Assembly: GCA_964016885.1 (NCBI GenBank)
Contig: CAXHJY010001719.1
Coordinates: 1-47,200 of the forward strand
From: Eledone cirrhosa
Taxonomy: Eukaryota
Length of the DNA stretch: 47,200 bases
Direction: 5' to 3'
Numbering within the stretch: the first letter of the stretch is position 1; each line of letters begins with the position of its first letter. Position numbers and translations under genes: made by a program. Positions 28,618-28,820 of this stretch are shown one piece after another. The notes beneath the pieces were generated by a model. That model saw nothing but the letters and a program-made list of their open reading frames with translations, was not told the origin of the DNA and did no database searches.

Positions 28618-28820
28618 AGGAACAAGTATGACCCCGACGACAGAGCTCAAGCCGTTTCGACGGCTATTTCTGGACTCAAATAGTCCAGAAATCGTAGTCG
28701 AAACGGCTTGAGCTCTGCCGTCGGGGTCATACTTGTTCCTATAATCCACTCTACTACCCTAAGTATTGAGTACTTTGGTGCGTTATAGTCCCTCTGGTTC
28801 CTTACCACATTTCCTTCGTT
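28618..28820 (+). mobile_element. Family B copy with ~60-bp-arm palindrome
   Basis: 28618-28676 is the reverse complement of 28682-28740 with few mismatches; TA-flanked. Confidence 0.85.

Follow-up and report, generated by a model that had tools for sequence, protein, structure and literature searches.

How does half of a hammerhead ribozyme come to face its own mirror image? The question arises at positions 28619-28819 of the window, by which we mean the whole 47,200-nucleotide stretch of Eledone cirrhosa DNA analysed here (contig CAXHJY010001719.1), a microsatellite-rich sequence from a genome of 3.0 Gb that also holds, at 31074-31829, a 48-nt tandem repeat with one frame open (276 aa). A sequence-only reading of the locus had proposed that the CUGAUGA half of the ribozyme was overwritten by the mirror of its GAAA half, either by snap-back of the cDNA or by quasi-palindrome correction at the ribozyme hairpin. 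As a whole, this interpretation is partly supported. The inverted repeat is real: the segments 28619-28676 and 28682-28739 are reverse complements (about 90% across 126 nt), the right arm has the described sequence GAAA-CGGC-TTGAGCTCT-GCCG-TC^GGGGTC, and the fold-back at 1713-1845 and the lone arm, which we place at 25517-25574, are both present. Two more copies, at 25350-25492 and 15285-15307, had been passed over. A chance origin is excluded by the thousands of copies found genome-wide, a reversed control pattern giving no matches. The arms had been said to end at TA-GGAAC, which holds for the short arms but not for one arm of each palindrome, which extends a further 80 nt to a second fixed end, TTCGT/TA, at 28819 in the query palindrome and at 1633 in the second. 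Nor is the centre a clean mirror, since a non-native C and the filler AAAT separate the arms; this C is an additional G on the sense strand of the short arm.

The GAAA half of the hammerhead sits within the short arm at 28619..28676. On the long arm, the 3' half consists of the stem II 3' strand, which carries mutations in this copy, GAAA (28700-28703), stem III with a palindromic loop, GUC (28720-28722) and the stem I 3' strand (Table 1). An Rfam scan of the window placed no hammerhead among the best 150 of 443 matches, all of them driven by microsatellites. (TA)n flanks the palindrome on both sides, and the length of a target duplication is illegible within such a repeat. At the copy that begins at 25350, approximately 100 nt of unrelated sequence (25246-25349), possibly captured filler, separates the arm from (TA)n.

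Table 1. Copies of the element and of its sister family in the window. Negative positions count back from site 2, the outer of two fixed arm ends; the wall is the point near -138 at which arms stop; a slash marks the join to TA.
Feature	Position	Strand	Remarks
Short arm	28619..28676	-	Element -138 to -81; wall to site 1 (GTTCC/TA, joined to (TA)n)
Junction	28677..28681		Non-native C at 28677, then filler AAAT at 28678-28681
Long arm, 138 nt	28682..28819	+	Wall (AGTCC) to site 2 (TTCGT/TA, joined to (TA)n)
Hammerhead 3' half	28692..28728	+	Predicted from the sequence and the fold of a native copy
Tail, 80 nt	28740..28819	+	Site 1 to site 2; on a single arm only
Second palindrome, long (site 2) arm, 138 nt	1633..1770	-	Reaches the wall
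Second palindrome, A-run, 12-nt duplicated piece and short (site 1) arm	1771..1844	+	
Long arm with preceding 10-nt inverted stub	25350..25492	+	Long arm from -133 (25360-25492)
Lone short arm	25517..25574	-	Site 1 to wall, (TA)n on each side
Site 1 stub, 23 nt	15285..15307	-	Beside (GA)n
Sister family copies	1893-2043 and 20042-20173		Long-arm/short-arm palindromes with two fixed TA ends and additional G

The arms belong to an abundant Penelope-like element (PLE), whose outer end fused to TA has 22,032 exact matches in the genome and whose commonest insertion form is the head-to-head palindrome. By following copies that carry more upstream sequence, we reached the end of a GIY-YIG ORF and from there intact elements, which are 3,542-bp units with an ORF for reverse transcriptase (RT) and GIY-YIG; they form a tandem array, and partial tandems also occur, which is the tandem and partial-tandem pLTR organization of PLEs. 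The inverted 5'-truncated copy and one-sided tail of PLEs are likewise present, with 62 of 90 sampled copies adjoining a short inverted arm. The sequence-only reading was thus right to assign the GAAA half to a PLE hammerhead and to see its relevance to the inverted 5' pieces of PLEs. The ORF product (P0001), 719 aa from the first Met, begins directly downstream of the arm sequence and has 2,054 relatives over nearly its full length. By inspection it contains GATDS, YRDDG and YIG, the signature of an RT with a C-terminal GIY-YIG in a single ORF; a Pfam scan of P0001 returned no families. It also carries the Hydra-type motifs RWR104, DKT184, CNCPDRSIC639, CNLC737 and CKH765 and a single Cys between IYQ and YIG, and the element inserts into (TA)n, as for the Hydra clade. 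P0001 lacks a CCHH motif, as do PLEs of that clade. By its motifs, the element is best filed as Hydra-like and not as a Hydra member, because it lacks the canonical hammerhead core.

A slightly looser search pattern yielded 232 matches that read through into the ORF. Seven of these lie 299 bp apart at G000:C2:356030076-356031890, as a short tandem of leader plus ORF start that is retrozyme-like. At the 5' end of the 3,542-bp array, on G000:C1 (about 91.489-91.493 Mb, L083-L084), some 65 repeats of a 55-nt piece of the RT ORF are followed by an inverted site 1 arm of 1.1 kb, an arrangement that resembles repeated slippage or small-circle copying.

The missing half of the ribozyme exists in native copies, in a different form from that expected. 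The predicted GACCCC-CTGANGA-GACGGCT has no match in the genome with up to one mismatch allowed, and in the loci examined none of 293 GAAA halves is preceded by the canonical CTGANGA of the Hydra clade. Instead, the native element reads ACCCC-(T/C)TGANAA-G, followed by stem II and a 37-nt loop, which would form a U3:A8-type core of a predicted hammerhead. A native copy folds as a three-way junction with stems I-III around UUGAGAA and GAAA, with a fold energy no better than that of shuffles (z -0.04). The subfamily of the intact array has the U3:A8 core, and among 95 distinct native halves, a sample enriched for the query's subfamily, we counted 37 with TTGANAA (U3:A8, N7 free), 52 with CTGAGAA (C3/A8 mismatch) and 6 others. 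The 5' ends of arms showed no peak at the hammerhead cut (4 seen against 2.9 expected, n = 42).

We scored arm ends and joins in the first 90 exact matches in positional order, which lie on one contig and favour young copies; a few calls at -142 are perhaps about 5 nt too long, with their class unchanged. Two fixed sites separated by 80 nt, both joined to (TA)n, mark where arms begin. Among 62 inverted partners of site 2 arms, 57 end cleanly at site 1 and one at site 2, and the other 4 were scored as 'other' where an indel or mismatches broke the alignment. Site 1 also terminates lone arms and kilobase-long arms. At their 5' ends, arms stop at a wall near -138, inside hammerhead loop II, where the sequence is TT(T)AGTCC: of the 90 direct arms, 50 have this end between -129 and -145, 34 fall short of it and 6 extend past the wall, and for the 62 inverted arms the corresponding numbers are 51, 9 and 2. 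Inversion centres are therefore non-random when mapped onto the hammerhead fold, lying in loop II, as the sequence-only reading had supposed. The joins themselves vary, with overlap in 29 of 62, blunt ends in 12 and filler in 21. Arm pairs agree in subfamily markers in 36 of 41 cases (25% at random), and both arms come from one source; this agreement has no discriminating power, as snap-back predicts the same. Short-read contigs repeat both the depth step (depth is not copy number) and the ORF-to-leader joints, so these features are not an artefact of long-read assembly.

What we observe, then, is an element with two fixed 3' ends 80 nt apart, a wall near -138, an additional G and variable junctions. 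We read the palindrome as head-to-head PLE arms, likely two run-off cDNAs that were primed from opposite (TA)n strands and joined end to end, which would account for the inverted ends of these elements, and give this reading a probability of roughly three in four. The RNA would start, capped, at the wall (the A of TTAGT in loop II), in which case the 5' half of the hammerhead would never be on the template. Reverse transcription would begin at two internal sites near the RNA 5' end, one for each target strand, and each cDNA would run off that end; the cDNA 3' ends would then be trimmed and joined, whether through microhomology, as blunt ends or with filler. Another PLE has been shown in vitro to cut and extend both strands and to use two internal RT starts that bound the tail (PMC11167929), which is the chemistry that such a twin-cDNA model requires. 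The fixed outer ends, TA context and high copy number would also suit a DNA element of the MITE type, or a non-autonomous family that propagates itself and has terminal inverted repeats (TIRs). This view is largely refuted, and we consider it highly improbable: each outer end is a different internal site of a retroelement, no inverted partner exists for 80 nt of one arm, the centre and its junctions vary from copy to copy, and lone arms and kilobase-long arms share the same ends. The resemblance of these 200-bp palindromes to MITEs or miRNA hairpins does make mis-annotation possible.

The base at the wall bears on the nature of the template. Genome-wide, the position before AGTCC (-139) is G in 5,457 matches and A in 891, and this G is non-native; at a control position six bases further in (-133) the counts are 818 and 660 (odds ratio 4.9). 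Among 100 listed G contexts, counted by eye, none continues as native upstream sequence; in 37 the partner arm cannot be the source of the G, and in the other 63 that arm or copied filler could be. In the 90-copy sample, after de-duplication, the wall-end bases were T 22, C 8, G 5 and A 4 (G 7 in a second scoring), and runs of T to -141/-142 are commoner there than G, so the end is ragged or A-tailed. The sequence TT(T)AGTCC is a candidate initiator-like motif. The G is the footprint expected of a capped RNA start, and the wall is probably a capped transcription start, although the added C could instead reflect a general terminal-transferase activity. In L1, untemplated G has been taken as cap copying (PMC9341517). 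A literature search, thin on subscription papers, turned up neither a start-site wall nor an additional G described for PLE insertions.

These data also bear on the proposal that a single cDNA snaps back, at stem II or after run-off, and is copied into the second arm. Self-priming of this kind on an antisense template has been proposed for PLE inversions (PMC3846280), and here the clustering of centres in loop II, the near-identity of the arms (0.78 against 2.89 differences per 35 nt) and the overlap at 29 of 62 joins are in keeping with it. Snap-back of a site 2 cDNA requires the direct arm to be the longer one, yet it reaches further 5' in only 18 of 62 pairs, compared with 24 for the inverted arm and 20 in which the two are equal. 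As many as 12 of the 62 partners reach at least 15 nt beyond the direct arm, and 7 of 62 pairs share no bases, which also disfavours correction at the ribozyme hairpin; later loss of one arm could mimic such asymmetry. The additional G lies on the short arm in 9 cases, on the long arm in 4 and is unassigned in 1, and elsewhere it is on both arms, with 1-6 nt between. A cDNA of the short arm could not serve as template for the 80-nt tail, and a G that lies mostly on that arm speaks against snap-back. Native loop II is missing from the centres, and lone and long site 1 arms occur. We therefore find the overwriting of the CUGAUGA half by snap-back or quasi-palindrome correction unsupported, and a snap-back origin unlikely.

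A sister PLE family, present twice in the window (Table 1), separates the palindrome centre from the ribozyme. Its ORF at L160:757-2877 is about 52% identical to P0001, its hammerhead-like core is CAGAAGAT...TGAA, and 67 of 100 listed rows have a G before a TTAGT-type site, in several cases on both arms, one base apart. The wall of this family lies upstream of its whole hammerhead-like motif, and the centre therefore tracks the likely start site and not, as the sequence-only reading had it, the ribozyme hairpin; this too argues against snap-back at that hairpin. Other repeats in the window show related features. A third-family palindrome of 160 nt, unpaired at its centre (2875-3037), is probably the same type of product. 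A complete canonical hammerhead (CTGATGA...GAAA) at 2660-2720 (minus) belongs to another repeat family with copies in other loci. An AT-rich family with CTGANGA...TGAAA cores occurs at 5336, 15454 and 42066 (minus) and at 23405 and 26826 (plus), and elsewhere (L006, L122, L186) it forms palindromes with the whole motif in each arm.

Two cDNAs might also have met a wall of another kind, where RT stalls at a hairpin in loop II or where RNA processing has made a cut. A small AU-rich hairpin does fold in loop II, the ends are scattered from -129 to -145, and a long inverted arm at L099:446-1264 has its 3' end at (TA)n near -142, at neither main site. Copies that read through the wall region are informative here. 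Of 30 such copies, 21 are followed by 1.5 kb or more of ORF and 2 end at +257; the other 7 are template jumps from leader to ORF, of which 3 begin at -134/-135 and none crosses the wall. Two of the 21 long copies stop short, and the 19 other rows (15 insertions) pass the wall, none stopping there, compared with 50 stops in 56 first-pass arms (Fisher p 6e-11). Because long copies cross it, the wall is not a fixed sequence stall; moreover, copying proceeds through stems III and II, which are stronger, and the additional G is position-specific. We accordingly regard a stall or processing cut as improbable. The long copies seem to have used a template without an end at -138, such as a circle or a multimer. 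Circles have been proposed for PLEs (PMC4209133), and long multimers would fit the long copies equally well.

It is possible, and we put this forward tentatively as something short of an even chance when its component claims are taken jointly, that the element has a life cycle with two templates, in which the stubs are the PLE counterpart of strong-stop cDNA. If so, the capped mRNA would start inside the hammerhead, could not cut its own 5' end and would give only palindromic stubs, whereas full-length and tandem copies would come from ribozyme-made circular RNA that has no 5' end. Each insertion would be twin-primed, with one strand using site 1 and the opposite strand site 2, and pseudo-LTRs, one-sided tails and head-to-head inversions would all follow from one sense-template mechanism.

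Much of the architecture, including the inverted truncated copy, the tail, the hammerhead and its U3-A8 variant, has already been described, while the origin of the head-to-head inversions, one-sided tails and tandems of PLEs is stated as open (PMC8557442, PMC3846280). As in Hydra-clade PLEs (Craig et al. 2021, PMC8557442), a single ORF has a C-terminal GIY-YIG, DKT, a CxCX5C linker, CxxC and CxH, and insertion is into (TA)n with an inverted 5'-truncated copy and a tail at one end. According to the same source, those elements have RWK where we find RWR, are generally under 3 kb (3.54 kb here), and their listed cores are all CTGANGA, in contrast to U3:A8 or C3/A8 with a 37-nt loop II; its general PLE scheme gives a tail of 30-40 nt compared with 80 nt here. 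Poseidon PAc of Anolis (Frangieh et al. 2024, PMC11167929) similarly has two tail-bounding RT starts downstream of its hammerhead, cuts and extends both target strands and uses an AT-rich target. Its sites lie inside the ORF, whereas here they are at least 71 nt upstream of the ATG, and that account, in the portions available, contains no derivation of head-to-head copies, 5' run-off wall or additional G. U3-A8 covariation, a long helix II and a short helix I recall the minimal hammerhead of Cercyon (Cervera and De la Pena 2014, PMC4209133), but stem III here has its full 5 bp and a palindromic loop, and most copies have the GAAA half only. That study also reported the U3:A8 variant for a Schistosoma PLE, noted paired motifs on opposite strands at distances of 100-700 bp and suggested that templates are circular. 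In Drosophila, the start site of Penelope lies in its pLTR, and the present element would be like Penelope of D. virilis in having its promoter and start site there (PMC2377424).

Young, short insertions of this family number in the tens of thousands and preserve in their junctions a legible trace of the reaction, and the family makes an open PLE mechanism testable at exact coordinates, on the strength of DNA footprints in one genome. In L1 twin priming, both target strands prime, the inner join is made by microhomology, and one RNA is copied from its poly(A) end into two cDNAs that cover different parts of it. Here, unlike in L1, the two cDNAs would have 58 copied nt in common, each being begun at one of two fixed internal sites, and the product is therefore a palindrome. 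An untemplated G at the complete 5' end is a feature shared with L1 (PMC9341517). An inverted pLTR and a palindromic junction are shared with Penelope of A. vaga, whose junctions were explained by self-priming on an antisense template (PMC3846280); in our family, the additional G is on the sense strand, and the junctions favour templates of sense orientation, probably capped, with two priming events independent of each other, and speak against antisense self-priming.
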